64,000 nt of DNA from Candidatus Nomurabacteria bacterium (GCA_943349945.1 CALQZS010000001.1:277953-341952); one strand, 5' to 3'; shown: positions 27,912 through 54,240, counted from the first letter of the stretch. Translations and numbers: made by a program. The notes: generated from the letters alone by a model not told the origin.

Positions 27912-28241
27912 ATGGAACCTATATCAATTGATGATTTTAAAAAAGTAGAAATTCGCGTGGGCGAAATTTTGTTGGCCGAGCCTGTAGTGGGTTCGGAAAA
28001 ATTGCTGCGTCTGGAAGTAAACTTTGGTACAGAAAAAAGACAAGTGGTGTCGGGTATTGCAAAACACTTTCCCGAGCCTGCTGCGTTGGTGGGCAAAAAG
28101 TGTGCATTCGTAACCAACTTGGCGCCTCGCACGATGATGGGGCTCGAGAGCCAGGCGATGATACTCGCGGCAGGCGGGGATGAAGGCGAGCCGCTGCACC
28201 TATTTGAGTCCACAGCACCACCGGGGTCGCCCGCACGATAA
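27912..28241 (+). CDS. CsaA/Trbp111-like tRNA-binding (OB-fold) protein
   Basis: '..KKVEIRVGEILLAEPVVGSEKLLRLEVNFG..VVSGIAKHF..' matches the MetRS C-terminal / CsaA tRNA-binding domain; start set at MEPIS. Confidence 0.6.
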   Translation: MEPISIDDFKKVEIRVGEILLAEPVVGSEKLLRLEVNFGTEKRQVVSGIAKHFPEPAALVGKKCAFVTNLAPRTMMGLESQAMILAAGGDEGEPLHLFESTAPPGSPAR

Positions 28242-28243
28242 CT

Positions 28244-28852
28244 ATGAAGCTACTCTTTGCTCGCCTTGCAACTCGTCGCAACCAGCTGTGGCAGTGGTTT
28301 GTGCGGCATGCAGAAAGCAGGCATGCCTTGGCGTGGCTTGGGCTTATTGCATTTTTTGACACCATCTTTTTACCTATTGCACCGGAGATTTTTATGGTGG
28401 CGCTTATGCTGGCACACCCCAAGCGGTGGAAGGCCTACTTGGCGGTTGGCCTTTTGGCATCAACTGCGGGGGCGGTGGTTGGCTACTCGATAGCGTTCTT
28501 TTTGTTTACACAGTTGGGTCCGCTGCTGCTGCGTACCGAGGCAGTGCAACATGCCTTTTTGGCGGCGCAGCAGCTGTTTGGTTCGCACGTGTTCGTAACG
28601 ATGCTTACCACCTCTTTTACTCCGATACCAGACAAGCTATTTATATATGCCGCAGGTTTTTTGCAAGTAAGCTTCTGGCTCTTTATTGCGGGGCATGTGG
28701 TGGGGCGGGGTGCGAGGATGGCCGCCTTGGTATATTTGACCGGCAAGTATGGCAAACATGTGGTGGACATAGTTGATAGGTACTTTTTGTGGTTTGGGGT
28801 TGCGGTGGTGGCGCTTGCCGGTGCATACGCTCTGTTGCGGTGGTTATTTTAA
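28244..28852 (+). CDS. DedA/YqaA-family membrane protein
   Basis: 202-aa polytopic membrane protein with a '..FFDTIFLPIAPEIFMVAL..' re-entrant-loop-like motif. Confidence 0.5.
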   Translation: MKLLFARLATRRNQLWQWFVRHAESRHALAWLGLIAFFDTIFLPIAPEIFMVALMLAHPKRWKAYLAVGLLASTAGAVVGYSIAFFLFTQLGPLLLRTEAVQHAFLAAQQLFGSHVFVTMLTTSFTPIPDKLFIYAAGFLQVSFWLFIAGHVVGRGARMAALVYLTGKYGKHVVDIVDRYFLWFGVAVVALAGAYALLRWLF

Positions 28853-28878
28853 AACTCTGAGGGTACAATGCCCACACA

Positions 28879-28950
28879 GCCCCTGTAGTTAAATGGATAT
28901 AACTGCGGACTTCTAAGCCGTTATTCTTGGTTCGATTCCAAGCGGGGGCA
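28879..28950 (+). tRNA. tRNA-Arg (anticodon UCU)
   Basis: Acceptor GCCCCTG/CGGGGGC, D-loop AATGGATA shared with the other Arg tRNAs, anticodon loop CTTCTAA (A31-G39 mismatch), T-arm CTTGG-TTCGATT-CCAAG. Confidence 0.8.
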
Positions 28951-28997
28951 GGAAAGGTACAAATATTCCGCCTGCGCGGAATTTTGTGCTTTCATGC

Positions 28998-29081
28998 CGG
29001 CCGGAGCGATGTCCTGCAATTGCGGGACCGCGAGGCGGGGTCGAGAAAATTCTGAGCGACGGCGAAGAATTATTCGTGACC
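28998..29081 (+). repeat. tRNA-trailer repeat element, most complete copy: CCGGAGCGATGTC ... GACCGCGAGGCGGGGTCG ... a 15-bp imperfect hairpin ending GTGACC
   Basis: Blocks shared with copies at 20265-20345 (reverse strand), 23978-24092 (reverse strand) and 29298-29353. Located after the tRNA-Arg terminator hairpin and before tRNA-Val. Confidence 0.55.
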
Positions 29082-29146
29082 ACAAAAAAAAGAACTGTTG
29101 AAATTCTTTTCCAATAAGGGTACAGTAGGGTTCGGCAACAGGCCGA

Positions 29147-29219
29147 TGCGCGGTTAGCTCAGTTGGTAGAGCAACTCATTTACACTGAGAAGGTCGGGGG
29201 TTCGAGCCCCTCACCGCGC
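29147..29219 (+). tRNA. tRNA-Val (anticodon UAC), CCA encoded (29220-29222)
   Basis: Acceptor GCGCGGT/ACCGCGC, D-arm GCTC-AGTTGGTA-GAGC, anticodon loop TTTACAC, T-arm GGGGG-TTCGAGC-CCCTC, discriminator A followed by CCA. Confidence 0.85.
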
Positions 29220-29222
29220 ACC

Positions 29223-29262
29223 AAAAACAAAATCCCCGACAAAATCGGGGATTTTGTTTTTG
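29223..29262 (+). terminator. rho-independent terminator after tRNA-Val
   Basis: 'aaaatccccga-caaa-atcggggatttt' followed by 'gtttttgg'. Confidence 0.55.
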
Positions 29263-29297
29263 GTATTGGGATGTAGTGAGGGGCTCGAAAGCCACAG

Positions 29298-29353
29298 ACG
29301 CGACGGCGTCGAGGCGGGGTCGCAAAAATTTCCAGCAGGAAATTATTTGTGAC
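29298..29353 (+). repeat. second copy of the 3' part of the tRNA-trailer repeat (GCGACGGCG / GTCGAGGCGGGGTCG / a 16-bp hairpin ending GTGACC), upstream of rluA
   Basis: Hairpin 'ggtcgcaaaaatttcc-agca-ggaaattatttgtgacc', matching the 29039-29081 hairpin with compensatory stem changes. Confidence 0.5.
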
Positions 29354-29402
29354 CGAGTCTCCCTGATAGCCAAGTCTCTATATTTAGTGTTCACTGTAGT
29401 TA

Positions 29403-30118
29403 TGGACCCCACCGTACTCTACGAAGACGATTCTGTTATCGTCGTCAACAAGCCTGCTGGTCTGGCTGTGCATGCCGACGGCAAACACGACCGCGCAACG
29501 CTGGTGGACTGGTTGCTTGCCGAGTACCCAGATATTAAAGGAGTAGGGGAGCCACAAACGCTCGCCGACGGCACCACTATAGAGCGTCCGGGCATAGTGC
29601 ACCGACTCGACCGCGAGACGTCGGGAGTGTTGATTGTGGCGCGCACGCAAGAGAGTTTTGATTTTTTGAAGGAGCAGTTTCATGAACGCGAGGTGCGCAA
29701 GGTGTATCGTGCGTTTGTATATGGAAACATCAAAGACGACCGGGGTATTATCGACAAGCCCATTGGCAGCACTCGCGGCGGCACGGGCCCACGTTCTGCA
29801 AAAAACGCCTACGGGGTTATGCGCGATGCTCTGACCATGTACCGGGTTATTACCCGAACGCCAGAAGTGACCTACGTCGAAGTGTTCCCCAAAACTGGCC
29901 GTACGCACCAAATCCGTGTGCACTTTGCGGCCATACAGCGCCCTATAGTGGGGGACAGGCTCTATGCGTCGCGTCGCGAAGCAAGGCTTGGGTTCAACAG
30001 ATTAGCGCTTCATGCCTTATCGCTTACGGTCAAGATCCCTCGTGGGGGCGAGCGCACGTTTGAAGCGCCCCTACCCCCCGATTTTGTGCAGGCAGAGCAG
30101 GAATTGCGAAGTATTTGA
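29403..30118 (+). CDS. RluA-family 23S rRNA/tRNA pseudouridine synthase
   Basis: '..HRLDRETSGVLIVAR..' catalytic Asp motif; start set at MDPTVLYEDD. Confidence 0.8.
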
Positions 30119-30150
30119 GCCTGTGGTACAGTCCTGTAACCTATAGAGAT

Positions 30151-30645
30151 ATGAAATCAGCAGTCCAAACAACCCCTATAAACATGCAAGAGCGCGCAGC
30201 GCTTGGTATTCGCGCTGGCGACAGTGTGCGTGTATGGCAAAAAATCGAAGAGCTCAAAAAGAGTAAAGGCGCCAACAAAAAAGAGGTGGTGACTAAAAAC
30301 TACCGCAAACAAGCGTTTGAAGGTTTGGTCTTGGCGGTCAAGCACGGCAGCGAGCCTGGCGCGATGTTTACCGTCCGCAAAGTTGCCAGCGGTGTGGGGG
30401 TAGAGAAAATCTTCCCGCTCTACTCGCCTATGATCGACTCTATCGAAGTATTGCGTCGCACCCGTACCCGCCGTGCAAAACTCTACTTTATTCGCGAGAA
30501 GGCAACCCGCGATGTGAAGCGCGCAATGCGCAAGTCTGTCCAGGTTGAAAAAGCCGCTCCAAAAGCTGTAGAAGCAGAAGAGGTAGTAGAAACAGAGGAG
30601 CCAACAGCAGAGGCTCCACAAGAGGAAGTTGTAGTAAAAGAATAA
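30151..30645 (+). CDS. rplS: 50S ribosomal protein L19 with acidic C-terminal extension
   Basis: '..RAGDSVRVWQKIEE..KQAFEGLVLAVKHGS..FTVRKVASGVGVEKIFPLYSPMIDSIEVLRR..RAKLYFIREK' bL19 core; ~45-aa Glu/Val-rich tail. Confidence 0.8.
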   Translation: MKSAVQTTPINMQERAALGIRAGDSVRVWQKIEELKKSKGANKKEVVTKNYRKQAFEGLVLAVKHGSEPGAMFTVRKVASGVGVEKIFPLYSPMIDSIEVLRRTRTRRAKLYFIREKATRDVKRAMRKSVQVEKAAPKAVEAEEVVETEEPTAEAPQEEVVVKE

Positions 30646-30736
30646 TTATTCTCACAGAAGAACCAGAGAGATCTGGCTTTTTCTTTATAAACAATTGGTA
30701 TACGCTATTACCTTGAGGAAATGATACACTTCAAGT

Positions 30737-31408
30737 ATGGGGAAGCGTGGGTTAAAACCAAAAGGGAAAGTAAAAATAGCTTGGTCGCCAAATTTTGCGT
30801 ATGCAATAGGGTTGCTCGTTACTGACGGTTCTCTTTCTAAAGATGGTCGACACATTATTTTTGTGTCAAAAGACCTAGAGCAACTTAAGAATTTTATGAA
30901 AGCTCTTGGATTTAGTGCAAATATCAGCACAACTCGTTCTGGTTATACAGGGGAAATGACCACACGCGTTCAATTTGGAGATGTGTTATTTTACAATTTT
31001 CTTTTAGATATAGGACTTATGCCAAACAAAACGAAAGTTATAGATAGGGTGCATATACCAAACGAGTATTTTTTCGATTTTTTACGGGGATGTTTTGATG
31101 GGGACGGTTCCACGTATTCATATTTTGATCCACGCTGGAAGTCCAGTTTTATGTTCTATACCACTTTTGTTTCAGCAAGTGCGAAGCATATAGAATGGTT
31201 GCAAGAGGAGATCTCGAAACAAGCAGGCCTATATGGACATATTACAGGTCGTGGAAGTTCCAAGAGGGCTGTCCTTCAGCTCAAATATGCAAAAAAAGAA
31301 TCCCTGTTATTGCTTAAAAAAATGTACTACTCAAAAAGTCTTTTATGTCTTTCGCGTAAGCGGTTGAAAATTGAGAAGATGTTGCGTATAATCGGCGAGC
31401 AGCTTTAG
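30737..31408 (+). CDS. LAGLIDADG-family homing endonuclease-like protein (two LAGLIDADG motifs), free-standing
   Basis: '..AYAIGLLVTDGSLSKDG..' and '..FDFLRGCFDGDGSTYS..' motifs ~100 aa apart; gene lies in a markedly AT-rich segment and ends 8 bp before tRNA-Leu. Confidence 0.6.
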   Translation: MGKRGLKPKGKVKIAWSPNFAYAIGLLVTDGSLSKDGRHIIFVSKDLEQLKNFMKALGFSANISTTRSGYTGEMTTRVQFGDVLFYNFLLDIGLMPNKTKVIDRVHIPNEYFFDFLRGCFDGDGSTYSYFDPRWKSSFMFYTTFVSASAKHIEWLQEEISKQAGLYGHITGRGSSKRAVLQLKYAKKESLLLLKKMYYSKSLLCLSRKRLKIEKMLRIIGEQL

Positions 31409-31416
31409 AGACATCT

Positions 31417-31500
31417 GCCCGGGTGTTGAAATTGGTAGACATTTATCCTTGAGGTGGATAAGCCCTCACGGGCGTGGAGGTTCGAGTCCTCTCCCGGGCA
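31417..31500 (+). tRNA. tRNA-Leu (anticodon GAG)
   Basis: Acceptor GCCCGGG/CCCGGGC, D-loop AAATTGGTAGA, anticodon stem TATCC/GGATA with loop TTGAGGT, long variable arm, T-arm GGAGG-TTCGAGT-CCTCT, discriminator A. The D-stem is weak. Confidence 0.75.
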
Positions 31501-31668
31501 CAGACAGAAAACATAGAAAACATAGAAAATAGCAAGACAAATATTCTATTTGTAACCAGAACAACTGACACGAGTGCTTAGTGTATTGGTGAACAAGTTG
31601 TTTCTGGGGTGTGAAGCTTTTTCGGATATAGTATAGTGTAAAAATAGTCAAAGCTATGAGATTTAATT

Positions 31669-31956
31669 TTGTACACTATGGATCAAAATAATGAACCACC
31701 CCGGATAACATTTGAGAACGAAGGGCTTCAGCGGCCTGCTCAGGCTTTTCAAGCATCAACGCCAAAAATCGTACAATGGGTCATTCAGTATTCCGGCGGA
31801 CTTGTCAAAGATGAAAAACAAGCAATTTATGTTCTGGTTGGATTTGTGGCGGTGGCAATTTCTTTCTCTGTTTTTTCAGTTTTTAATGGAGGAACATTTG
31901 AAAGTCCGAAAGACACCGAGGTATTGCCTGCCGGATTATCACCATTGTTGCCATGA
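31669..31956 (+). CDS. hypothetical small membrane protein upstream of the pilin gene
   Basis: 95-aa ORF with one TM (IYVLVGFVAVAISFSVFSVF); AT-rich codon usage like its neighbours. Confidence 0.3.
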   Translation: MYTMDQNNEPPRITFENEGLQRPAQAFQASTPKIVQWVIQYSGGLVKDEKQAIYVLVGFVAVAISFSVFSVFNGGTFESPKDTEVLPAGLSPLLP

Positions 31957-32525
31957 ATAAATCAAGAGGATTTACCCTCATTGAGCTTTTGGTAGTTATC
32001 GCTATCATTGGAATTTTATCCAGTATAGTGTTGACGAATTTAAACACAGCTCGTTCAAAAGCTCGAGATACAAAAAGAGTTGCTGAAATAAGGCAAATAG
32101 AAACAGCTTTGGAAATGTATCATGCCAATAACGGCAGATACCCTAACATAGTGCATGGACTAGGGTTTGATACTAATTGTGGAGGAGGTGTGCCTTTGGT
32201 TGTTGGTTGTGGGCACTGTCAACGTTGGTGTGCTCTTGAAACAGCCCTCGCTCCCCATATGAGCAAATTACCCCGAGATCCTCTAGGAACCGCTCAAAGT
32301 GTTTACTACTATGCGTACTCATCAAACGCAAACGACCAAATGTATGGCCTTATGGCGGTGTTAGAAAACTTGAGTACAATAAACCAAAATGATGGGGGCT
32401 ACTACTCCTCCGCTTTTGAGAGAGGACCACGTCCAGTTTATTGCGTGAATAAATATACAGGAGGCGGCGCAGAATGGTTAAATGTCTCTGGCGCTTGGTC
32501 AAATGTTTGTGCTGGAGGAAATTAA
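31953..32525 (+). CDS. type IV pilin (prepilin with class III signal peptide)
   Basis: 'MNKSRG|FTLIELLVVIAIIGILSSIVL': canonical G-1/F+1/E+5 prepilin cleavage and methylation motif; Cys pair in the C-terminal region. Confidence 0.75.
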   Translation: MNKSRGFTLIELLVVIAIIGILSSIVLTNLNTARSKARDTKRVAEIRQIETALEMYHANNGRYPNIVHGLGFDTNCGGGVPLVVGCGHCQRWCALETALAPHMSKLPRDPLGTAQSVYYYAYSSNANDQMYGLMAVLENLSTINQNDGGYYSSAFERGPRPVYCVNKYTGGGAEWLNVSGAWSNVCAGGN

Positions 32526-32711
32526 CCACGAACGAAATTGAACCCAGTTTGTCCCAGAGTAAAACATCTCGTTAGCTGTCCGCTGGTATTGGTCTTGGGT
32601 TTATTGCACCGTTGTACTATTTGTCACAAAGAGAGCTTAAAAACCAAACACAGTAGCCGTACCCGTTTGGTCAAATATATGCTATAAAACAAGCGTCCTG
32701 TGCGTTTATAT

Positions 32712-32784
32712 GGTGCCTATGGTGTAAAGGTTAACACTCGAGTTTGTGGAACTCGCAATCTGGGTTCGATTCCCAGTAGGCACC
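32712..32784 (+). tRNA. tRNA-His (anticodon GUG) with encoded G-1 and encoded CCA (32785-32787)
   Basis: Extra 5' G pairing with discriminator C73; acceptor GTGCCTA/TAGGCAC; anticodon loop TTGTGGA; T-arm CTGGG-TTCGATT-CCCAG. Confidence 0.85.
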
Positions 32785-32803
32785 CCAGAATAATTATTTA
32801 TAC

Positions 32804-45611: not shown

Positions 45612-47300
45612 ATGGGCAAGGACAATATAGAACAAGCAATCCAAAAAGCACTAGAGGCGCTCGGCGCCTCGGGTGTGGCTTTTGTGGTGGAGCGCCCAGG
45701 GGACTTGGCGCATGGCGACTATGCCACCAACGCAGCGCTCGCTGCGGCAAAACCGCTGGGCAAGAGTCCGCGCGAGGTGGCAGAAGAGCTGAAGGCAAAA
45801 CTTGATGAGGAAATAGAGGGAGTAGAAAAAATCGAAATCGCTGGCCCGGGGTTTATCAACTTCCGTCTTTCGCGCGAAGCTATTTTAGGGGAGGTGCAAA
45901 AAGCTGCTACAGACAAAAGTTGGGGGCAGAATGATTTGTATAAAAACAAAACGGTGATGGTCGAGTATACCGACCCAAACCCGTTTAAAGAATTTCATAT
46001 TGGACACTTGATGAGCAACGCTATTGGCGAGGCTATTGCGCGCACGCTCGAGAATGCGGGGGCAAAAGTAATCCGTGCAAACTACCAAGGCGACGTGGGG
46101 CCGCACGTGGCTAAAGCTATCTTTGGGCTGCTAGAGTTAGGATTTGAAAATCCAACGAGCGAGCAGTTGGGCCAAGCATATGTGCTGGGTGCCTCGCGGT
46201 ATGAAGAAAGTGCAGAGTATAAAAAACGCATCGACGAGATAAACAAAGCCGTATACGAAAAAACAGACCCAGAGGTTAATGCTCTGTATGCAATTGGCCG
46301 CAAGGTATCGCTCGCGCATTTTGAAGAACTCTACAAAATGTTGGGGACCAAGTTCGAACATTACTTTTTTGAAAGCGAGACAAGTGCCAAGGGGCTTGCA
46401 TTGGTGGGGGAAAATACGCCGAGCGTGTTTGAAAAGAGTGACGGCGCTGTGGTCTACAAGGGCGAGAAGGTGGGTTTACACACACGTGTGTTTATAAACT
46501 CGCAAGGCTTGCCAACATACGAGGCAAAAGATTTGGGGTTACTGCAGTCTAAAATAGAGAAGGCTGCGTTTGACCAGTCTGTTACGGTAACCGCCAACGA
46601 GCAGACAGAATACTTTAAGGTGATGCTTGCGGCAGCAAAAGAAATCCCAGCGCTGCAAAATATTGCAGAAAAAACTACCCACGTAGTGCACGGTATGATG
46701 CGCTTTGCAGAGGGTAAGATGTCGTCGCGTAAGGGGAATGTTATAACCGGCGAATCGCTTTTGATGGACATACAAGAGGCGGCAAAAGAAAAAATGCAGA
46801 GTAGGGAATTGGCTGATGCAGAAAAAGTTGCGAGTCAGGTGGCTGTGGGGGCCATTAAATACACCGTGCTCAAACAAGGAAGTGGCAAGGACATTGTCTT
46901 TGATAGAGAAAAATCGCTTTCGCTCGAGGGCGACTCGGGGCCGTACCTGCAGTATGCGCACACACGCGCTGCATCTTTGGTGCAAAAGGCGCGTGCTGCA
47001 GGGGTGAGCGACAAGGTAGAGAGTGTGCAGGATGTGGAGGAATTTTTGGGCGCACTTATGCTCGACCGTTTGCTTATACACTATCCAAGTGTGGGTGCTC
47101 GCGCGGCGCACGAACTTGAGCCGCACCATGTCACCACATACCTTACAGAACTTGCTGCGGCATTTAACTCTTGGTACGCACAGGTGCGGGTTATAGACGG
47201 TGACTATCCTTCGTATGCACTTTTGCTTGCAGAGGCGGTGGAGCAGACGCTTGGCAAAGGGCTAGAACTTCTGGGCATCCCCGCGCCCAAGGAGATGTAA
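45612..47300 (+). CDS. argS: arginyl-tRNA synthetase
   Basis: '..PNPFKEFHIGHLMSNAIGEA..' HIGH motif, class I anticodon-binding DALR domain at the C-terminus. Confidence 0.9.
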   Translation: MGKDNIEQAIQKALEALGASGVAFVVERPGDLAHGDYATNAALAAAKPLGKSPREVAEELKAKLDEEIEGVEKIEIAGPGFINFRLSREAILGEVQKAATDKSWGQNDLYKNKTVMVEYTDPNPFKEFHIGHLMSNAIGEAIARTLENAGAKVIRANYQGDVGPHVAKAIFGLLELGFENPTSEQLGQAYVLGASRYEESAEYKKRIDEINKAVYEKTDPEVNALYAIGRKVSLAHFEELYKMLGTKFEHYFFESETSAKGLALVGENTPSVFEKSDGAVVYKGEKVGLHTRVFINSQGLPTYEAKDLGLLQSKIEKAAFDQSVTVTANEQTEYFKVMLAAAKEIPALQNIAEKTTHVVHGMMRFAEGKMSSRKGNVITGESLLMDIQEAAKEKMQSRELADAEKVASQVAVGAIKYTVLKQGSGKDIVFDREKSLSLEGDSGPYLQYAHTRAASLVQKARAAGVSDKVESVQDVEEFLGALMLDRLLIHYPSVGARAAHELEPHHVTTYLTELAAAFNSWYAQVRVIDGDYPSYALLLAEAVEQTLGKGLELLGIPAPKEM

Positions 47301-47329
47301 AAAGCTCAAAAAGTGGTATATTTTCATAC

Positions 47330-50300
47330 ATGGATTCAAAACCTCAGGGAGGGGAAGAGGCGCATCGTGGCGCCGAAGTAGCAAAAAAAGGCCCGCTGGC
47401 CATGCGCGAGGAGATAGTGCTCGATTTTTGGAACAAAGAAGAGATTTTTAAAAAGACCCTCGAAAAGCCAGCCCCCAAGGGCGAGTATGTATTTTATGAT
47501 GGTCCGCCGTTTGCAAACGGCTTGCCGCACTACGGGCATATTTTAGCGAGCTCGATTAAAGATGTTATCCCGCGCTACCGCACTATGCAGGGCTACCGTG
47601 TGGGGCGACAGTGGGGGTGGGACTGTCACGGACTCCCCGTCGAGAACTTGGTAGAAAAAGAGCTCGGGTTCAAAACCAAACGCGATATAGAAGACTACGG
47701 CATCGCTAAGTTTAATGCTGCTGCGCGCACTAGCATCATGAAGGATGTGTCGGACTGGAAGCGCATCATCCCGCGCATGGGGCGCTGGGCCGACATGGAC
47801 CACGACTACAAGACCATGGATGCTTCCTATACCGAGTCGGTATGGTGGGCGTTTAAAAAACTCTACGACAAAAAGCTTGTCTACGACGGCTTTAAGGCAA
47901 TGCACTTGTGTCCACGATGTGGCACTACACTTTCTAACTTTGAAGTTGCGCAGGGCTACCAAGACATAGATGACATAGCCGTAACGGTGAAGATGCCTTT
48001 GGTTGATGAGCCGGAGACGTCGTTGCTTATTTGGACCACCACACCATGGACACTGCCGGGCAACGTGGCGGTTGCGGTTAATGCGCAAGCTGCCTATGTA
48101 AAAGTCCGCACGGACGACGGTTTTGTGGTGGTCGCCAAAGATCTGGCGGCAAAAGTGCTCGGAGATGATTTAAAAATATACGGAGAAATAGCGGGCAAAG
48201 ACCTGGTGGGCAAATATTACACACCACCGTTTAATTATTTTGTTGATCAAATACACAAACACAAAACGCACGCATGGCGCGTGTACGCGGCGCCCTACGT
48301 TACCCTGACCGACGGCACAGGCATCGTGCACCTAGCGCCCGCCTATGGCGAGGAAGATCTGCAGCTGGCCCAAAAAGAAAAGATACCACTTATTCATCAT
48401 GTAACAGATGAGGGTAAGTTTGTGGCGACGGTCAGTGACTTTGCGGGGCTGCCAGTCAAACCAAAAGGCAGACACATGGAGACTGACACAAAAATAGTCG
48501 AGCACCTGCGCGCAAAAGGGCTTTTGTTTAAAGAAGAAAAAATAAACCATTCCTACCCGCACTGTTGGCGTTGCGACACTCCGCTGCTTAACTGGGCAGC
48601 CAACTCATGGTTTGTAAAAGTCTCTGCTATTAAAAGCAAACTGCTTGCGCAAAACAAAAAGGTGCAATGGGTACCTCCACATGTGGGGGAGGGGCGTTTT
48701 CAAAATGGTCTGGCAAGTGCCCCCGACTGGGCGGTGTCGCGCAGCCGCTACTGGGGTGCGCCCATTCCCGTATGGCGCCACAGCAAAACAAAAGAGATAA
48801 AAGTGCTCGGGTCAGTAGACGAGTTGTTGGCGTTGGTGCGTCGCTCGGGCAATAAGTACTTTATACTTCGCCATGGTGAAGCAAAGAGTAACGTCGAGCG
48901 TATACTCAACTGCGATAACACAGGGGAAAATCATTTGACCGACACAGGGCGCAAACAAGCTGCCGCCGCGGCGCGTGCACTACGCGGTAAAGGTATAGAC
49001 ACCATTGTTGCATCGCCGCTGCTGCGTGCACAAGAAACTGCGCGCATGCTGTGCGACCAGTTGGGCATCCCGCAGTCGGCCATTATGACGGATGTGCGGC
49101 TCAGTGAAGTGGGGTTTGGAGACCATAACAACGGCTCGGTGGATGCATGGGAGTCGCTGTTTCCCACCTTGGCAGACAAGTTTACCAAAGCAGCACCAGG
49201 CGTCGAGACGTACACGCAAGTACGCAGTCGTTTGGGAGAATTTATTTTTGATGTCGACAAACGCTACACAGGCAAACGCATTTTGGTAGTTACGCACGGG
49301 GCGCCTGCATGGCTTTTGTCTGAGTTTGCTGCACACACCGACCAAAAAACACTTGCAACCCGTGCACATGGCGGCAGTATGTTGTCGAATGGACAGTGGC
49401 AAGAGATGACCTTTACACCTTTTCCACACAACGAGACCTACGACCTCGACCTGCACCGCCCCTACATCGACGACGTGGTACTTGGCGACCCGCTGCGCGG
49501 CGAATGGAAGCGCGTCCCTGATGTGTTTGATTGTTGGTTCGAGTCTGGTTCGATGCCTTTTGCATCCAATCACTACCCGTTTAACAAACAAAAGTTTGAT
49601 CCAAAGAAGTTTTTTGGTCTTATGCCAAAGGGCTACCCTGCAGACTTTATAGCCGAAGGTCTCGACCAGACGCGCGGATGGTTTTACTCGCTTATCGTGC
49701 TGGGTACCGCGCTCTTCGGGCAAAGTCCGTACAAGCAGGTGATAGTAAACGGTTTGGTGCTTGCACAAGATGGACAAAAGATGAGCAAGCGGCTCAAAAA
49801 CTATCCCGACCCTATGGAAGTGGTAAACACCTTTGGTGCTGACGCGCTGCGATACTACCTACTTTCGTCGCCGGTTATTCGCGCCGAAGATCTTAACTTT
49901 GCGTTGCGCGGCGTAGAAGAGGTGTCTAAAAAGTTGCTCATGCGGCTCGACAATGTGCGCAGTTTTTATGACTTGTATGCAGCGGGGGAACATGCGCAAA
50001 GTGTGGCGCCAACGCACACTCTTGATGTGTGGGTGGTGTCGCGGCTTGGCGAACTTATTCGCGATACACAAGCAGGGTTCGAGTCGTACGAATTAGATTT
50101 GGCGACACGCCCTCTTGCTAGCTTTATCGACGATGTGTCCACGTGGTATCTGCGTCGCTCTCGCGACAGATTTAAAACCGAAGGCGCAGACAAACAGCAG
50201 GCGCTTGCCGTGTTGCGCTTGGTGCTCAAGACGACTGCTTTGGTGATGGCGCCTGCCATGCCGTTTTTTGCAGAAGACCTCTACCTACGGGTGCGCGACG

Positions 50301-50782
50301 CGGGCGACGCAGAAAGTGTGCACTTGGCTACATGGCCGCTGCCACAAAAAATAGACGAGTCGCTGCTTGCCGACATGGTGCGGGTGCGTGCGCTGTGTTC
50401 TCGTGGGTTGGAGTTGCGCGAAAAGGCGGGTGTCAAAGTACGCCAGCCGCTAAGCAAGCTTGTAGTAAAAGAACTCTCTTTGAGTGACGCGCTGCGTGCG
50501 GTTATTGCAGACGAGCTTAATGTAAAAGCAGTGGTAGAAGATGCGGGCATGCAAGAAGATGTGATGCTCGACACGACGCTCACTCCAGAGCTTAAAGAAG
50601 AAGGCATGCTGCGCGATATCATTCGCCACATACAAGGCTGGCGCAAAGAGCAGGGACTCACCATCACCGACCGCCCGGCTTACACTTTTGTGGGTAGTGC
50701 AGAGGAAGTTGCGGTTGCACAAAAATATACAGACGACATCCTTGCTGCGACGGGTCTCGCAAGTTTGGACGCGCATGCATAA
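47330..50782 (+). CDS. ileS: isoleucyl-tRNA synthetase (1150 aa) carrying an inserted, apparently intact histidine-phosphatase (PGAM/SixA-like) domain at residues ~505-705 (nt ~48842-49444)
   Basis: IleRS signatures: 'PPFANGLPHYGH', 'WDCHGLP', 'VFDCWFESGSMPF', 'KMSKRLKNYPDP'. Inserted domain motifs: 'ILRHGEAKSN' (RHG), 'SPLLRAQETA', 'VVTHGAPA'. Confidence 0.85.
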   Translation: MDSKPQGGEEAHRGAEVAKKGPLAMREEIVLDFWNKEEIFKKTLEKPAPKGEYVFYDGPPFANGLPHYGHILASSIKDVIPRYRTMQGYRVGRQWGWDCHGLPVENLVEKELGFKTKRDIEDYGIAKFNAAARTSIMKDVSDWKRIIPRMGRWADMDHDYKTMDASYTESVWWAFKKLYDKKLVYDGFKAMHLCPRCGTTLSNFEVAQGYQDIDDIAVTVKMPLVDEPETSLLIWTTTPWTLPGNVAVAVNAQAAYVKVRTDDGFVVVAKDLAAKVLGDDLKIYGEIAGKDLVGKYYTPPFNYFVDQIHKHKTHAWRVYAAPYVTLTDGTGIVHLAPAYGEEDLQLAQKEKIPLIHHVTDEGKFVATVSDFAGLPVKPKGRHMETDTKIVEHLRAKGLLFKEEKINHSYPHCWRCDTPLLNWAANSWFVKVSAIKSKLLAQNKKVQWVPPHVGEGRFQNGLASAPDWAVSRSRYWGAPIPVWRHSKTKEIKVLGSVDELLALVRRSGNKYFILRHGEAKSNVERILNCDNTGENHLTDTGRKQAAAAARALRGKGIDTIVASPLLRAQETARMLCDQLGIPQSAIMTDVRLSEVGFGDHNNGSVDAWESLFPTLADKFTKAAPGVETYTQVRSRLGEFIFDVDKRYTGKRILVVTHGAPAWLLSEFAAHTDQKTLATRAHGGSMLSNGQWQEMTFTPFPHNETYDLDLHRPYIDDVVLGDPLRGEWKRVPDVFDCWFESGSMPFASNHYPFNKQKFDPKKFFGLMPKGYPADFIAEGLDQTRGWFYSLIVLGTALFGQSPYKQVIVNGLVLAQDGQKMSKRLKNYPDPMEVVNTFGADALRYYLLSSPVIRAEDLNFALRGVEEVSKKLLMRLDNVRSFYDLYAAGEHAQSVAPTHTLDVWVVSRLGELIRDTQAGFESYELDLATRPLASFIDDVSTWYLRRSRDRFKTEGADKQQALAVLRLVLKTTALVMAPAMPFFAEDLYLRVRDAGDAESVHLATWPLPQKIDESLLADMVRVRALCSRGLELREKAGVKVRQPLSKLVVKELSLSDALRAVIADELNVKAVVEDAGMQEDVMLDTTLTPELKEEGMLRDIIRHIQGWRKEQGLTITDRPAYTFVGSAEEVAVAQKYTDDILAATGLASLDAHA

Positions 50783-51368
50783 GGTTGTGGCGACACAGGG
50801 GCTGGTGTTGACCAAGCGCAGCGCGGGCGAGGCAAACACGCTTGTGGCGATTTTAACTAAAGATCTGGGGCTTGTGCGCGCTGCGGCGCGCAGTGCGCGG
50901 GTAGAGCAGTCCAAATTGCGCTACGGGCTAGAGCCGCTCACACAAGGCAAGTTTTCTATGGTGCGTGGCCGGTATGAATGGAAGCTGGTCGGCACGGAAG
51001 AATTGTCTCGCGCGTATCTTGCGGGGTCGCCGCTGTCTCGTCGTGCGGCTGGGCGGGTAACTCGCTTGCTGCTGCGCCTTATACATGGGGAAGAACCCGT
51101 CGCCGATTTGTATACCACTGTTGTCGAGGGGCTCGACCGCTTGGTTCGGGCCGAGAGCGAGGCAGAGCTAGAGAGCGTTGAGTGTGTGTTGGTGTTGCGA
51201 GTATTGGCGCACCTGGGCTACTTGCCGCACACACCAGCTTTGGCGCCATTTTTGCAAACTGCCCCGGAGGGCGAGTTTATGTCCGAAGACCTGGCTGTGG
51301 CCGTGGCCCGCTCGCGCCCCTCGCTCATCCGCACCATCAACCATTCCCTCAGCGCCACCGGATTGTAA
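50775..51368 (+). CDS. recO: DNA repair protein RecO (short form, no zinc finger)
   Basis: N-terminal OB-fold '..TQGLVLTKRSAGEANTLVAILTKDLGLVRAAARSAR..'; the start overlaps the ileS stop by 8 nt. Confidence 0.55.
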   Translation: MHKVVATQGLVLTKRSAGEANTLVAILTKDLGLVRAAARSARVEQSKLRYGLEPLTQGKFSMVRGRYEWKLVGTEELSRAYLAGSPLSRRAAGRVTRLLLRLIHGEEPVADLYTTVVEGLDRLVRAESEAELESVECVLVLRVLAHLGYLPHTPALAPFLQTAPEGEFMSEDLAVAVARSRPSLIRTINHSLSATGL

Positions 51369-51484: not shown

Positions 51485-52696
51485 GTGGAACCGCAAGAGG
51501 CGACTGTTGAAGAGGTGCTGTCCCGAGGCGGCTCTGTATCCATTATTGACCTGGTAGAGGCGCTGGTGCGACAAGCATATTTAGTGGGAGCGTCCGATAT
51601 TCATATTGATCCAACGGATGTAGCGCTTCGTGTGCGCATGCGAGTGGATGGAGTGTTGCAAGAAAAGTTTTTTCTAAGTAGGAGTATTCATTCTGAAATA
51701 ATTTCGCGTATCAAAGTGCTTTCGTGGTTGCGCACCGACGAGCATCAGGCCGTCCAAGACGGCCGTTTTCGTTTGCTTAGCGACGGGGCGATGCCAATTG
51801 ATGTGCGCGTGTCCATCGTACCTACATATTATGGAGAAAATGCTGTGCTACGGCTTTTAATCGATACTCCAGAGCAGCACACACTTGCAACGCTTGGATT
51901 TAGCGAGGATGACCAACAGAAGATACTTCGTGCCGTACGACACCCCGACGGTATGGTGCTTGCTACTGGCCCCACTGGTTCGGGCAAAACAACCACGCTC
52001 TATACATTGCTTAAAATGCTCAACACTAGCGAGGTGTCCATTGTTACGATAGAAGATCCTGTGGAGTATGCGATAAGCAACGTAACCCAAATACAAACAC
52101 AGGCAAAAACAGGACTGACTTTTGCAACTGGGTTGCGCTCTATTTTGCGCCAAGATCCAAATATTATTATGGTGGGCGAGATTCGAGACAAAGAAACTGC
52201 TGGGATTGCGGTTAATGCAGCACTCACGGGACACTTGCTGTTGTCGACCTTACATACAAGTAATGCGGCAGCAACTCTACCAAGGCTGCTTGATATGGGA
52301 GTCGATTCCTATTTGGTCGCGTCAACAGTTTCTTTGGTGATAGGGCAGCGTTTGGTTCGTAAAATTTGTACCGAGTGTCGGTCACCGTATGTCTTGTCGT
52401 CAAACGAACGCGAGAGTCTGCAATCTGTCCTGCAGGGCGCGCCAGATGATCCGTTTTTTATAGGGCAAGGGTGTGTGGTGTGCGATGGTAGCGGGTATCG
52501 CGGGCGAGTGGGTGTGGATGAAGTGCTGGTGGTAGATACGTCTGTGCGTGACGCACTTCTTGCAAGAGAGTCCGCGGCGCATATTCATGCACTTGCGGTC
52601 AAAAACGGTATGACTCCTATGTTACAAAATGGCCTACACAAAGCGCGCCTGGGTCTTACGAGTATTGCAGAATTATTGCGAACCATGCATGAATAG
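51485..52696 (+). CDS. short GspE/PilB-family secretion ATPase (no N-terminal N1 domain)
   Basis: Walker A 'GPTGSGKTTTLYTLL', Walker B/Asp box, His box, tetracysteine 'CTECRSP..CVVCDGSGYRGRVG'. Confidence 0.8.
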   Translation: MEPQEATVEEVLSRGGSVSIIDLVEALVRQAYLVGASDIHIDPTDVALRVRMRVDGVLQEKFFLSRSIHSEIISRIKVLSWLRTDEHQAVQDGRFRLLSDGAMPIDVRVSIVPTYYGENAVLRLLIDTPEQHTLATLGFSEDDQQKILRAVRHPDGMVLATGPTGSGKTTTLYTLLKMLNTSEVSIVTIEDPVEYAISNVTQIQTQAKTGLTFATGLRSILRQDPNIIMVGEIRDKETAGIAVNAALTGHLLLSTLHTSNAAATLPRLLDMGVDSYLVASTVSLVIGQRLVRKICTECRSPYVLSSNERESLQSVLQGAPDDPFFIGQGCVVCDGSGYRGRVGVDEVLVVDTSVRDALLARESAAHIHALAVKNGMTPMLQNGLHKARLGLTSIAELLRTMHE

Positions 52697-52730
52697 CCCG
52701 TACGCAATCACCTACATACAAGGGTTATGG

Positions 52731-53780
52731 ATGCGCTCTTCTATTAAAGAGCAGACTTTATTTGCCAAAAAACTCTCCTTTTTGCTGGGAGCACAAATAT
52801 CTATTGTGGAGTGTCTGGATATGCTTCGCGCACAGACGACGTCTAAAGCCAAAGAGCAAGCGTTGGATGATGTAGTGCAGAGTGTTGCGAACGGACAACT
52901 ACTGTCAGCTAGTCTTGGTAAGTATCCTCGTTTGTTTAGTGATTTTTTTATTACCCTTGTGCGCGTTGGAGAACAAAGCGGCACGCTACACACAAGCCTC
53001 GTACATCTTGCGGATGAATTAAAGAAAAAGCACCTGCTGCGCACTAAAGTGCTTGGCGCGCTCGTGTATCCAACCACTATTTTTATAGGGACTATTTTGG
53101 TGACTGTGGTGTTGATGGTGTATATTTTTCCAAAAATCTTACCCATCTTTGCAAGTCTGCAAGTGCAATTACCGCTCTCGACTCGCCTGGTGCTGGCATT
53201 GAGTGATTTTCTTATTGCGTTTGGCCTTTGGTGCGCCTTGGTTGTTGGTGTTGTTGTTATTGCTTTGTATATTGCACGTAACAAATATACAAGAGTCCGC
53301 TGGTATGTTGATGCTGCCACGCTGCATGTGCCACTGGTGCGCCACATGGTGCAGAGCTATAACCGCGCCAATGTCTGTCGTACCCTTGGGCTGCTGCTCA
53401 ACAGTGGTATGTCACTGGGAGATGCATTACTCGTTACTGCGGAGGGGACACGGAATCTGCTTTATAAAAATAGTTTGTTGGACCTGTGTCTTTGTGTGCA
53501 ACAGGGGAGTTCCTTGTCGAGCGGGTTTGTACGGTATCCAAAATTATTTTCTGCGTTAACCATGCAGCTTGTGGCGGTAGGAGAGCGGACAGGCACACTC
53601 GCTGCGTCGCTTGTGTATGTGGGCGACTTGCATGAGGGGGAAGTGGATGAACAAACAAAACACCTTGCTGCATCTATTGAACCGGTGCTTATGATTGTAA
53701 TGGGGCTCACGGTTGGTTTTGTTGCGATAGCAATTATCACGCCCTTGTATGAAATTACCTCACACCTTACTCCGCGATAA
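52731..53780 (+). CDS. pilC: type IV pilus / type II secretion platform protein PilC/GspF
   Basis: Two GspF repeats with '..LVRVGEQSGTLHTSL..' and '..LVAVGERTGTLAASL..'. Confidence 0.8.
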   Translation: MRSSIKEQTLFAKKLSFLLGAQISIVECLDMLRAQTTSKAKEQALDDVVQSVANGQLLSASLGKYPRLFSDFFITLVRVGEQSGTLHTSLVHLADELKKKHLLRTKVLGALVYPTTIFIGTILVTVVLMVYIFPKILPIFASLQVQLPLSTRLVLALSDFLIAFGLWCALVVGVVVIALYIARNKYTRVRWYVDAATLHVPLVRHMVQSYNRANVCRTLGLLLNSGMSLGDALLVTAEGTRNLLYKNSLLDLCLCVQQGSSLSSGFVRYPKLFSALTMQLVAVGERTGTLAASLVYVGDLHEGEVDEQTKHLAASIEPVLMIVMGLTVGFVAIAIITPLYEITSHLTPR

Positions 53781-54240
53781 GTGCGACGACTTATTTTTGT
53801 TGCCACATAAAAGTGGCTTTACGTTGGTGGAAGTACTGGTGGTGTTAGGGTTACTTTTGCTACTTGTGGGTCTTGGAGGGCTGGGGAGTATGGAGGCGTA
53901 CAGGTCGTATGTGTTTACTGCAGAAACACACACATTAGTTAGTGTGTTAGAGCGGGCGCGCAGTCAGGCGCTGGTCAATAAACAGCAACTGCCGCATGGC
54001 GTATGTTACCAAGCGCCGCACTACATCCTTTTTCAGGGGACTGAGTGTGTAGATACACCAAGTAGTGAACGTATTAGGACAGCACGGAGTATTGCGGACG
54101 CTTCTGATTTTGACACCATGTTTCCTGTGGTCATATTTACGCCGCTCACTGCAACTACTGTCTCGGCAACCATACATGTTACAGATGGTTTGCGGACTAC
54201 GGACATTGTAATAAATGATGAAGGCGCAATTTTTTGGTAG
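53749..54240 (+). CDS. pseudopilin / minor pilin (prepilin-type N-terminus)
   Basis: '..HKSG|FTLVEVLVVLGLLLLLVGL..' class III signal peptide with Glu+5. Confidence 0.6.
   Translation: MKLPHTLLRDKCDDLFLLPHKSGFTLVEVLVVLGLLLLLVGLGGLGSMEAYRSYVFTAETHTLVSVLERARSQALVNKQQLPHGVCYQAPHYILFQGTECVDTPSSERIRTARSIADASDFDTMFPVVIFTPLTATTVSATIHVTDGLRTTDIVINDEGAIFW

Follow-up and report, generated by a model that had tools for sequence, protein, structure and literature searches.

The window analysed here, a 64,000-nucleotide stretch from Candidatus Nomurabacteria bacterium, carries an argS-ileS-recO block in which the ileS reading frame contains a nested histidine phosphatase module. The features of the block, all on the plus strand, are the following (coordinates of the IleRS motifs were checked by translation):

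45612..47300, +, argS (ArgRS), 29 bp upstream of ileS (Pfam tRNA-synt_1d, Arg_tRNA_synt_N, DALR_1)
47330..50782, +, ileS including the nested domain, 1150 aa, a type-2 (eukaryote/archaea-like) IleRS (ORF listing, TIGR00392, Pfam, AF2 model)
47330..48835, +, N-terminal part of IleRS, aa 1-502: first Rossmann half, CP core, CP1 editing domain, CP2 and first CP3 half (aligns to yeast IleRS 13-491)
47528-47539, +, HYGH, aa 67-70, first Rossmann half
48035-48052, +, TTTPWT, CP1 editing domain
48314-48331, +, GTGIVH, CP1 editing domain
48836..49444, +, nested histidine phosphatase module with two linkers, aa 503-705 (no yeast IleRS counterpart; Pfam, AF2, Foldseek)
48860-49369, +, Pfam His_Phos_1 (PF00300) match, aa 511-680
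48869..48877, +, RHG motif, aa 514-516, with H515 as the predicted phospho-accepting histidine (conservation)
49025..49027, +, R566, predicted second phosphate-binding Arg, in SPLLRAQETA (185/185 CP3 copies)
49106..49108, +, E593, predicted proton donor, in RLSE (conservation; alignment to PhoE)
49109..49228, +, cap/flap region of the phosphatase, aa 594-633, dispensable in relatives (deletions in homologues)
49295..49297, +, H656, predicted second catalytic His, in THG (182/183 aligned CP3 copies)
49412..49432, +, F-T-P-F-P-H-N, aa 695-701, motif of the C-terminal linker that only nested copies have (conservation)
49445..50782, +, C-terminal part of IleRS, aa 706-1150: second CP3 half, second Rossmann half, anticodon-binding domain and C-terminal DUF5915 (aligns to yeast IleRS 498-883; Pfam)
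49526-49558, +, FDCWFESGSMP, second Rossmann half
49778-49792, +, KMSKR, aa 817-821, second Rossmann half
50775..51368, +, recO, with an 8-nt overlap between its start (ATG) and the 3' end of ileS; conserved downstream neighbour (Pfam RecO_N, RecO_C; synteny)

The window has no separate copy of the phosphatase.

Judged from its sequence and model, the 1150-aa protein is a fully equipped type-2 IleRS, with predicted sites for synthesis and for CP1 editing as well as anticodon-binding domains. It scored 871 bits against the equivalog profile TIGR00392 (ileS; cut-off 621.4), the insert dividing the match into two stretches, and its IleRS portion matched tRNA-synt_1, Anticodon_1 and DUF5915 in Pfam. 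The class-I and IleRS signatures reported in a preliminary description of this DNA were recovered by translation, WDCHGLP included, and the CP1 editing site also has D343. HYGH, KMSKR and the editing-site motifs were invariant in 120 homologues. The AF2 model of the full-length protein (pLDDT 84.5) was confident across both insert junctions, and its best Foldseek matches were Priestia megaterium IleRS2 (8c8v), yeast IleRS (8wnd) and 1ile, with target-normalised TM-scores of 0.80-0.88. The mupirocin-resistance enzymes MupA and MupB (NF000257 and NF000258) were rejected as identities, with 667 and 703 bits against 1900; the window protein is kin to type-2 IleRS without being one of these plasmid enzymes. 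The GNAT-bearing IleRS (NF040702) was likewise discarded, with 320 bits against 1999 and no acetyltransferase family among the Pfam matches.

In a phmmer alignment to yeast IleRS, residues 26-502 of the query corresponded to 13-491 of the yeast chain and residues 706-1070 to 498-883. Thus, ~197 extra residues replace a 6-residue yeast loop, in agreement with the ~200 first reported, and the canonical and solved IleRS structures, as had been supposed, carry no such insert (phmmer against yeast IleRS, Foldseek). The 3' end of the interval originally proposed (48842-49444, aa 505-705) agrees with ours, whereas we place the start at 48836 (aa 503). Only this replaced loop is short, and not, as the 12-15 residues formerly given would suggest, the connecting segment: the entire CP3 has ~60-68 aa, while the loop measures 5-6 aa in close relatives lacking the insert and 13 aa in one more distant type.

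The first CP3 half ends in the helix GSVDELLAL, and the second carries DLHRPYID. The CP3 connective-peptide subdomain (ScIleRS 459-526) is peripheral and structurally variable among IleRS proteins. The domain is indeed nested inside IleRS, but in this subdomain and not in the catalytic core proper, where it had been placed. Four Cys (Zn knuckle) flank the insert in relatives, and many nested forms elsewhere retain the knuckle; the small Zn ribbon named earlier for this segment thus applies to relatives, whereas none of the four Cys survives in the clade of the window. The pocket for A76 is lined by the linker between CP2 and CP3. Human CP3 serves as a platform for interactions with other proteins, and the outer CP3/catalytic-domain face of IARS1 docks a domain of another protein with no clash with the tRNA (LARS1:IARS1 model). 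The CP3 location argues mildly against a direct hand-over of the tRNA 3' end.

The insert is a complete branch-1 histidine phosphatase domain with an apparently intact catalytic site, and it resembles phosphomonoesterases such as PhoE and CobC. The His_Phos_1 profile matched with an E-value of 2.3e-31 (109.4 bits, gathering threshold 21.7; profile positions 2-171 of 194). The AF2 model of the module alone (pLDDT 90.8, pTM 0.89) had PhoE, GpgP, CobC and TIGAR as its nearest Foldseek neighbours (E about 1e-13 to 1e-12), and the best 50 of the 294 PDB matches at E <= 0.001 were all histidine phosphatases or mutases. The motifs LRHGEAKSN, SPLLRAQETA and VVTHGAPA, on which the domain was first recognised, are all present. 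R514 and H515 were found in 120/120 close homologues and in 181/181 aligned CP3 copies; position 593, which aligns with the Glu of RLREIHLG in PhoE, is Glu in 181 and Asp in 4 of the 185 CP3 copies. Taken together, the catalytic Arg-His, Arg, Glu and His are near-invariant across 185 nested copies, while the insert averages ~47% identity among homologues, versus 69-76% for the IleRS halves. Catalytic residues that are kept while the rest drifts are the signature of a retained active site, and the domain thus looks competent and not decayed, as the preliminary description proposed.

Two other properties of the insert emerged from the homologues. The linkers rank among its most conserved positions, with RRSGN...Y on the N side and F..PHN on the C side (F695 and P699 invariant, H700 and N701 in at least 98%; n=120). 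Moreover, ~30 residues of the cap are deleted in 34/120 close homologues (28%), which retain the catalytic residues; the insert measures 168-173 aa in these short forms and 198-207 aa otherwise.

No characterised subfamily claimed the insert. Its best NCBIfam match was dPGM_arch (87-90 bits, cut-off 225); the mutase models pgm_1 (23 against 81.7) and PRK14115 (23 against 305) scored lower. A cofactor-dependent phosphoglycerate mutase (NF038349, TIGR01258, PRK14115) was rejected, as the insert scored below all cut-offs and the mutase features are missing: there is VGFG after the Glu, the second motif is THGA (not HGN), and the cap, whose arginines bind substrate in mutases, is lost in 28% of the homologues. 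A Parcubacteria genome paper gave no information on PGM or pyrophosphatase. CobC (TIGR03162; 62-67 bits against 162.9), SixA (TIGR00249; 38-42 against 74.5) and PspA (NF045917; 40-45 against 350) also fell short of their cut-offs.

The nested protein is real and conserved, the phosphatase insert is lineage-wide, and the organism is Patescibacteria-like, as the preliminary description assumed. All 120 best homologues of the 1150-aa protein carry PF00300, the nearest being only ~75% identical. Relatives of the query are encoded in at least 135 stretches from species-representative genomes of GTDB; 80 loci were kept from these, and in 80/80 the N-terminal IleRS part, the insert and the C-terminal part are colinear. 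This survey of orthologues, which had been suggested earlier, also speaks to the possibility of a frameshift, mis-assembly or chimeric junction: 7 contigs taken from three sources (NCBI, Logan and ENA) encode the identical protein, which together with the colinear loci refutes it, and with a reading frame continuous over the whole ORF, a GC content of 0.54-0.55 across the insert without compositional break and the model confident over both junctions, we give an artefact practically no weight. Seen from the insert, IleRS proteins or their fragments with the nested domain make up ~96 of the 149 cluster representatives at 50% identity, and among its 150 best relatives the host is IleRS in all but a handful, the exceptions being a ValRS-like fragment and a fusion with TsaC. 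Conservation points to purifying selection on the IleRS and on the phosphatase.

The preliminary description had missed this breadth, the nesting at several IleRS loops (see below) and the fact that the domain is a nested version of a gene that elsewhere stands between argS and ileS. In related lineages, the closest free-standing relatives (~188 aa; P0164, P0433, P0441, P0455 and P0412, Patescibacteria proteins of the 'histidine phosphatase family / PhoE') are encoded between argS and an insert-less ileS in 5/5 cases examined. They start 0-54 nt after argS (5/5) and precede ileS by 0-3 genes, with a 1-nt gap in locus L081 and a 7-nt overlap in L087, and recO lies downstream in these split-gene lineages too. 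They belong to the same subfamily as the insert (35-45% identity, E 1e-29 to below 1e-19 in a 1.8-billion-protein library) and share its catalytic residues and the argS...ileS...recO block, but are separate polypeptides that end before the F..PHN linker and are often strongly basic. Their IleRS partners, unlike the window IleRS, have a CP3 loop of 5-13 residues and an intact Zn knuckle. Note that the adjacency is seen with two IleRS types that share only 34% identity, that the free-standing gene is packed as closely to argS as to ileS, and that the gap between these genes can also hold CYTH, HD_3 and a toxin-antitoxin pair. The net charge of the free-standing family has a median of +15 and reaches +26 in 188 aa, whereas nested copies are acidic, a contrast that is suggestive of RNA binding but confounded by the AT-rich genomes, whose proteins, the neighbours included, are generally basic. 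In a rough NJ tree of the highly diverged IleRS cores, the IleRS proteins that lack the insert in split genomes fell among those that carry it, a placement that fits either fission or multiple fusions.

The same domain was also found at other positions of IleRS: in the second CP3 loop (P0178, P0182), after HYPF (P0196, P0178) and before the anticodon-binding domain (P0196, P0180). Hence, the phosphatase is nested at four or more IleRS loops, sometimes with two copies per protein, and the copies at the other loops all retain the catalytic residues. The P0196 architecture recurs on 6 contigs of up to 1.06 Mb, and the two-copy CP3 lineage (P0182, P0166, P0242) forms a stable clade, the only clear one. 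Nearest-neighbour identities among all domain copies were 27-49%, low for telling duplication from independent capture. The gene content of the alternative-site lineages hints at something other than typical Patescibacteria.

Outside IleRS, TsaC is fused in Patescibacteria to MGMT, TruB, NUDIX, 2H-phosphoesterase and GNAT, and to this phosphatase in four clusters. One such Sua5/YrdC (TsaC)-His_Phos fusion, P0214, was considered as a link to adenylate-forming tRNA enzymes and downgraded, given the many unrelated fusion partners of TsaC. Housekeeping-gene fusion is promiscuous in Patescibacteria, and fusion alone is therefore weak evidence for a shared function.

We propose, as the somewhat probable explanation, that the protein is a bifunctional enzyme, an IleRS with a nested histidine phosphatase, and that an operon partner of IleRS has been repeatedly captured as a nested domain. 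The phosphatase would be the covalently captured form of the separate, tightly packed ORF that lies between argS and ileS in related lineages, and the protein has two complete, separately conserved active sites. The domain would lie on the outer CP3 face, off the tRNA path, so that isoleucylation and editing would proceed normally. H515 would attack a phosphomonoester whose phosphate is bound by R514, R566 and H656, and E593 would act as the acid. Since some lineages have the domain as a separate protein and others have it at different loops of IleRS, the fusion would serve obligatory 1:1 co-expression and co-localisation with IleRS and not precise channelling; the existence of free-standing, operon-encoded versions implies that a precise intramolecular geometry is unnecessary. 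IleRS and the phosphatase thus look functionally linked, although gene order in reduced genomes can reflect descent and not function. To our knowledge, no histidine phosphatase acts in aminoacylation.

As to the substrate, a small soluble phosphate ester of the IleRS cycle or of nucleotide turnover (AMP or another nucleoside monophosphate) is weakly favoured over a macromolecule. The cap usually shapes small-molecule specificity; its deletion in 28% of the homologues and the very basic character of many free-standing relatives count against this choice, and a macromolecular substrate would fit them better.

The domain could instead be an unrelated housekeeping or metabolic phosphatase (for sugar phosphates, phosphoserine or nucleotides) that happened to lie next to ileS, became fused by deletion or rearrangement in compact genomes and has no functional link to IleRS. 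The fusion-prone genomes, the permissive and variable surface that CP3 offers, the accessory genes that suggest a permissive argS-ileS gap and the broad-specificity or metabolic nature of the best profile and structure matches (PhoE, GpgP, CobC, PspA, TIGAR) would all suit such an origin. However, a simple deletion joins neighbours end to end and does not nest one of them in a loop, let alone in four or more different loops, sometimes twice per protein, and nesting is also seen in lineages with gene content unlike Patescibacteria. The near-exclusive use of IleRS as host, an adjacency that survives across two very different IleRS types and the conservation of the linkers are also at odds with a chance passenger, and we think this origin unlikely.

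A direct role of the phosphatase in the mechanism of tRNA(Ile) charging or quality control, acting on the tRNA (2'/3'-phosphate or pyrophosphate block) or on an IleRS-bound nucleotide product, also seems unlikely to us. Its most explicit form, the removal, before charging, of a 2'-/3'-phosphate or pyrophosphate from tRNA(Ile) 3' ends that have been damaged or modified by a toxin, we regard as distinctly doubtful. IleRS does bind the tRNA 3' end, with the A76 pocket lined by the linker described above, and cap loss in 34/120 homologues would open a SixA-like site. Moreover, basic free-standing and acidic nested forms are as expected if IleRS supplies the RNA affinity, and TsaC of the same phylum is fused to RNA-end enzymes of the 2H/CPDase type as well as to this phosphatase. 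Against this, the human LARS1:IARS1 model keeps the tRNA away from the outer face of CP3, no acceptor-end geometry is fixed when the domain can sit at loops as distant in sequence as those after HYPF and before the anticodon-binding domain, or in a separate protein, the basic charge may only reflect AT-rich genomes, and healing offers no reason for specificity towards tRNA(Ile). We know of no histidine phosphatase that acts on RNA ends.

Self-protection, in which the domain would destroy a phosphorylated inhibitor of IleRS or a pro-toxin (e.g. an aminoacyl-adenylate mimic) by hydrolysis at the target enzyme, is very improbable. This would have a precedent in logic, the GNAT enzymes that detoxify the aminoacyl-adenylate-mimicking warheads of microcin C and tiarins, as well as the curated IleRS family with GNAT, and an episymbiotic lifestyle may expose these cells to antibiotics of hosts and competitors; but the known adenylate mimics are phosphodiesters, phosphoramidates or sulfamoyl compounds, not typical His_Phos substrates, and the trait is clade-wide and ancient, unlike patchy resistance determinants. 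No phosphomonoester inhibitor of IleRS is known to us. Even less credible is a phosphatase fold that serves only as a structural, tRNA-binding or docking module replacing the lost CP3 Zn knuckle, which the absence of all four Cys in the window's clade and the docking role of human CP3 might suggest, since the near-invariant catalytic set contrasts with ~47% identity elsewhere in the domain and the knuckle is also kept in many nested forms.

A whole, apparently active phosphatase forms part of IleRS throughout a large radiation of uncultivated bacteria. A fusion combined with a conserved neighbourhood and recurrent capture is the strongest type of genomic evidence for a functional partnership, here one between a histidine phosphatase and a synthetase for which we found no published account. 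Every extra catalytic domain of aminoacyl-tRNA synthetases, such as those for editing, has brought to light a further layer of quality control in translation or of signalling. The substrate could likewise reveal a new step linked to isoleucylation, be it product clearance, tRNA-end repair or regulation. If the phosphatase were part of charging, these lineages would have an IleRS with a third catalytic step, a phosphohydrolytic one, and independent nesting at four or more loops and operon adjacency would reflect an undescribed, obligatory physical partnership of the two enzymes. Alternatively, this would be a clean case of compact genomes hard-wiring the stoichiometry of two enzymes. The system is tractable, with a soluble-enzyme size, clear point mutants (H515A; KMSKR) and natural 'split' controls. 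In line with the novelty originally claimed for a synthetase with an embedded phosphatase, a literature search, Patescibacteria/CPR included, found no published account of a histidine phosphatase with IleRS or another aminoacyl-tRNA synthetase.

Compared with known systems, the window protein shares its whole IleRS scaffold with P. megaterium IleRS2 (8c8v) and the enzymes of S. cerevisiae (8wnd, 7d5c) and T. thermophilus (1ile): HxGH, KMSKR, CP core, CP1 editing site, CP2, CP3, and the anticodon-binding and DUF5915-type domains (31-34% identity, with the TM-scores given above; phmmer E about 1e-216 to 1e-201). These solved enzymes have no domain in the CP3 loop, where the window protein has a 203-residue enzyme domain, and T. 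thermophilus IleRS and many relatives keep the Zn-binding Cys of CP3, which the window protein lacks. The insert, in turn, has the fold of PhoE (YhfR, Geobacillus stearothermophilus), Rv2419c GpgP, CobC, TIGAR and PspA, with the RHG, the second Arg, the Glu and the His-Gly; the PhoE structures 1ebb/1h2e matched with a phmmer E of 2e-10 over 151 residues and a Foldseek E of about 1e-13 (TM about 0.68). Identity to these small branch-1 phosphatases is only 23-28%, no subfamily cut-off is reached and, unlike them, the insert is nested via conserved linkers and can dispense with its cap.

Other multidomain enzymes provide partial parallels. The NF040702 family, ileS_w_GNAT ('isoleucine--tRNA ligase, N-acetyltransferase domain-containing'), is a curated precedent for an IleRS with an extra, unrelated catalytic domain, although there the domain is a GNAT and, from the profile coordinates only, lies within the CP1 region. 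In the bifunctional RNase H / acid phosphatase of the Rv2228c type (NF005567), an enzyme acting on nucleic acid is coupled to a histidine phosphatase resembling CobC and PhoE; the insert scored 80-84 bits against its phosphatase half, short of the 326-bit cut-off, and Rv2228c is an end-to-end fusion with RNase H, whereas the window domain is nested. Finally, the CP1 editing domain is the classic nested hydrolytic domain and illustrates that class Ia synthetases can host one inside the Rossmann fold; CP1, however, acts on aminoacyl esters and belongs to every IleRS, ValRS and LeuRS, while the domain described here is a predicted phosphatase restricted to particular lineages.

The host protein is an isoleucyl-tRNA synthetase (IleRS) of the type-2 kind. 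It scored 871 bits against TIGR00392, the NCBIfam ileS equivalog (cut-off 621), and Pfam matched it with tRNA-synt_1 (two stretches), Anticodon_1 and DUF5915. The class I motifs HYGH (aa 67-70) and KMSKR (aa 817-821) and the editing-site motifs TTTPWT, GTGIVH and D343 are all present, and neither set of motifs varied among 120 homologues. The gene and its surroundings are laid out as follows:

45612-47300: argS, upstream of ileS by 29 bp (47301-47329)
47330-50782, + strand: ileS ORF, 1150 aa in an uninterrupted frame
48836-49444, + strand: nested phosphatase module, aa 503-705
49109-49228: cap region of the phosphatase, aa 594-633; about 30 residues after the catalytic Glu are missing in short forms
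50775-50782: 8-nt overlap of the recO ATG with the ileS stop, recO lying downstream
51485-52696: PilB-like gene (type IV pilus), after recO
52629-53780: PilC-like gene (type IV pilus), after recO
53749-54240: pilin-like gene (type IV pilus), after recO

The window argS, ileS and recO genes are probably co-transcribed. Over 12 kb (20391-32787) lie eight tRNA genes (Lys, three Arg, Ser, Val, Leu and His); neither rRNA nor tRNA-Ile occurs anywhere in the window.

The preliminary description had read the insert as an intact histidine phosphatase, and this was borne out. The peptides LRHGEAKSN, SPLLRAQETA and VVTHGAPA, on which that reading relied, were all found in the translated ORF, and Pfam His_Phos_1 (PF00300) matched aa 511-680 significantly (E 2.3e-31; 109 bits, gathering score 21.7). 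The AF2 model of the module alone reached a pLDDT of 90.8 and a pTM of 0.89; in the full-length model (pLDDT 84.5, pTM 0.74) no part was predicted better than the insert, most of whose 10-residue blocks scored 86-97. Foldseek matched the module to the mycobacterial hydrolase 6s2q, PhoE (1h2e), GpgP Rv2419c, TIGAR, CobC and PspA (E ~1e-13 to 1e-11, TM ~0.68), and the nearest solved protein by sequence was PhoE (E 2e-10). Note that the insert missed all the NCBIfam subfamily cut-offs: dPGM_arch (87-90 vs 225), CobC (62-67 vs 163), SixA (38-42 vs 74.5) and PspA (40-45 vs 350). The guest can be filed only as a branch-1 histidine phosphatase of the PhoE-like type, in no curated subfamily. We rejected a phosphoglycerate mutase identity, given the missed dPGM_arch cut-off and the absence of mutase-specific residues.

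Among 185 nested copies, all sequences aligned at R514 and H515 have both residues. R566 was found in 185/185, E593 in 181 (Asp in the other 4), and H656 in 182 of 183. Mean identity among homologues was about 47% for the insert vs 69-76% for the IleRS halves, a combination that fits a domain whose active site is retained as its scaffold drifts. The window protein joins a complete IleRS to a complete, conserved phosphatase active site. Moreover, 34 of the 120 close homologues (28%; among P0002-P0120 of the collected proteins) carry a short form of the insert (168-173 aa), which lacks the cap and retains the catalytic residues; these forms should have a more open active site.

A phmmer search against solved structures aligned aa 26-502 of the window protein with residues 13-491 of yeast IleRS, and aa 706-1070 with residues 498-883; therefore, 203 window residues occupy a position of six residues in the yeast enzyme. 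Yeast residues 459-526 form the CP3 connective-peptide subdomain, which in Candida IleRS is a small beta-beta-alpha-alpha module. CP3 topology varies between IleRS types, and in T. thermophilus CP3 holds a Zn site. Mapped onto the yeast and Candida CP3, the phosphatase therefore has the first CP3 helix (GSVDELLAL) on its N side and the DLHRPYID helix on its C side. The insertion reported in the preliminary description stands, but not its placement in the catalytic core, since the yeast alignment puts it in a peripheral, variable module.

The phosphatase was inserted at a permissive loop on the protein surface. In the human LARS1:IARS1 complex, the catalytic domain and CP3 together make a surface on which a further protein domain sits with no clash with tRNA(Ile). 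Because this same surface accepts a protein in that way, a 23-kDa domain can be tolerated at CP3, and the analogy suggests that the nested domain would sit off the tRNA path. In relatives without the insert, the CP3 loop has 5-6 residues and is flanked by CxxC...CxC; the four Zn-knuckle cysteines are kept in these and in many nested relatives. All four are lost from the window's clade (WRHSKTKE ... LGDPLRGEWKR; window 48770-48835 and 49472-49525). Both linkers of the insert are conserved: the N-terminal one reads RRSGN.Y, and the conserved positions of the C-terminal one are F695, P699, H700 and N701.

The nested phosphatase is neither an artefact nor rare. GC content shows no break across the insert region, and the identical protein occurs on 7 contigs (NCBI, Logan, ENA). 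IleRS orthologues of related Patescibacteria carry the same insertion: PF00300 was present in 120/120 best homologues (61-100% identity), which bear the names Candidatus Paceibacterota, Adler-, Kaiser-, Nomurabacteria and Minisyncoccia. When GTDB species were scanned, each represented by one genome, at least 135 stretches encoded a relative of the query, and in 80/80 kept loci IleRS-N, insert and IleRS-C were colinear on one strand, usually with argS upstream and recO downstream. The insert alone, searched against 1.8 billion cluster representatives, gave 755 matches at E <= 1e-10; about 96 of the 149 best classified representatives were IleRS, or IleRS fragments, with the nested domain. In public annotation the entries read 'class I tRNA ligase family protein' or 'isoleucyl-tRNA synthetase', and the insert goes unmentioned. 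Submitter labels on several records look unreliable: one nested IleRS locus (L019, an 8.5-kb contig) is titled 'Spirochaetia bacterium' and is probably mis-binned, and dozens of loci among L003-L079 are titled 'uncultured Candidatus Saccharibacteria', with Paceibacteria-type nearest named relatives.

The cluster search with the insert also gave members of the same subfamily that are separate proteins, about 185-205 aa long. One of these free-standing relatives, used as query, returned 322 clusters from Patescibacteria, including Staskawiczbacteria, annotated as 'histidine phosphatase family protein' or 'broad specificity phosphatase PhoE'. In 5/5 loci examined, the free-standing gene starts 0-54 nt after argS (<=3 nt in four) and is followed by 0-3 more genes, then by an ileS without the insert (818-982 aa), with recO further on. 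In one locus (L081) a single nucleotide separates the phosphatase stop from the ileS start, and in another (L087) the two genes overlap by 7 nt. Two IleRS types sharing only 34% identity both show this adjacency. No separate phosphatase copy was found in the 64-kb window, nor any phosphatase gene in the argS-ileS gaps of more than 350 bp in nested genomes (0/34). The gene block is the same whether the phosphatase is separate or nested; this is therefore one gene, which some lineages keep beside ileS and others carry as part of IleRS itself.

The free-standing family (P0390-P0508) contains many very basic proteins (median net charge +15); the L087 phosphatase (6001-6567) reaches +26 in 188 aa beside a neutral IleRS. 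Nested copies are acidic, with a median of -5. The basic charge could reflect nucleic-acid affinity or merely AT-rich composition. The genes between phosphatase and ileS comprise a CYTH triphosphatase-family gene in L083 (10570-11160) and, in L085 (6652-7819) and L086 (6814-7806), either an RHH-ParE toxin-antitoxin pair accompanied by an HD_3 phosphohydrolase or an unknown 330-aa ORF. Phosphohydrolases are thereby present in two of these three sets too. A bAvd-like gene beside a reverse transcriptase lies between ileS and recO in L087 (10716-12078), likely a diversity-generating retroelement, and L083 has a further reverse transcriptase (6890-7663) on the upstream side of argS.

Other IleRS loops also host the domain, in proteins from loci L088, L089 and L090. 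In P0182, P0166 and P0242 the usual CP3 loop holds one copy, and the CP3 hairpin, about 20 residues on, holds a second. P0178 combines a copy at this second CP3 point with one after the HYPF motif (query aa ~762-770), and P0180 a CP3 copy with one before the anticodon-binding domain. P0196 (1419 aa) has no CP3 copy; one follows HYPF and the other directly precedes the anticodon-binding domain (aa ~886-896). The complete proteins of this group scored 761-830 bits with TIGR00392, and RHG, R, E and H are kept in every alternative-site or second copy. Judged from these alignments, nesting in IleRS has happened repeatedly and has involved at least four loops.

Six contigs, the longest of 1.06 Mb, carry the P0196 architecture with the same protein length. 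It lies near pyruvate:ferredoxin oxidoreductase, PurA, DAHP synthase and an SLH protein; UvrA and a long RelA/SpoT are among the genes around the two-copy form. Both neighbourhoods look unlike a typical Patescibacteria genome. In L090 the two-phosphatase IleRS is split into a 329-aa N-terminal ORF (6708-7697) and a 979-aa ORF (8001-10940) about 300 bp apart; a frameshift, misassembly or an intervening element could account for the split. P0125, on a contig of <=3.9 kb whose end cuts the protein, has a ValRS-like N-terminal part (ValRS 411 bits vs ileS 199) followed by four tandem His_Phos domains; if real, it is a lead to ValRS as another host.

We propose that IleRS and phosphatase cooperate closely, and that selection has repeatedly joined both in one polypeptide. 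The selected trait would probably be 1:1 co-expression and proximity rather than a fixed channel between sites, since the domain also exists as a separate protein and at loops distant in sequence. By the chemistry of the family, H515 would accept the phosphoryl group from a phosphomonoester and E593 would protonate the leaving group. We weakly favour as substrate a small soluble phosphate ester associated with either nucleotide turnover or the IleRS cycle.

The main sober alternative is a passenger fusion with no functional tie to IleRS, because TsaC (Sua5/YrdC, t6A synthesis) is joined in Patescibacteria to many unrelated partners (P0214, P0271-P0387). MGMT-type DNA_binding_1 is the commonest, others being TruB, CPDase/2H phosphoesterase, NUDIX, GNAT and methylpurine glycosylase, and in four clusters TsaC is fused to the His_Phos subfamily of the window. 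However, a passenger does not easily explain nesting, rather than end-to-end joining, at four or more loops of one host. As to the substrate, a macromolecule, either a tRNA end or a phosphoprotein, is a live alternative to the small ester, favoured by the cap loss in close homologues and by the strongly basic free-standing forms.

The observation of a phosphatase-bearing IleRS is confirmed and its first interpretation partly supported; beyond what had been claimed, the nested enzyme is lineage-wide, probably began as an operon partner and was captured recurrently, at several loops. We found no paper on a phosphatase-bearing aminoacyl-tRNA synthetase, and this IleRS is an unstudied multi-domain synthetase. 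The NCBIfam family 'IleRS with GNAT domain' is likewise an IleRS with a foreign catalytic domain, but the domain is another one and apparently sits at another site. GNATs detoxify synthetase-directed warheads, and this detoxification is the only precedent for a self-protection (immunity) role of the phosphatase.
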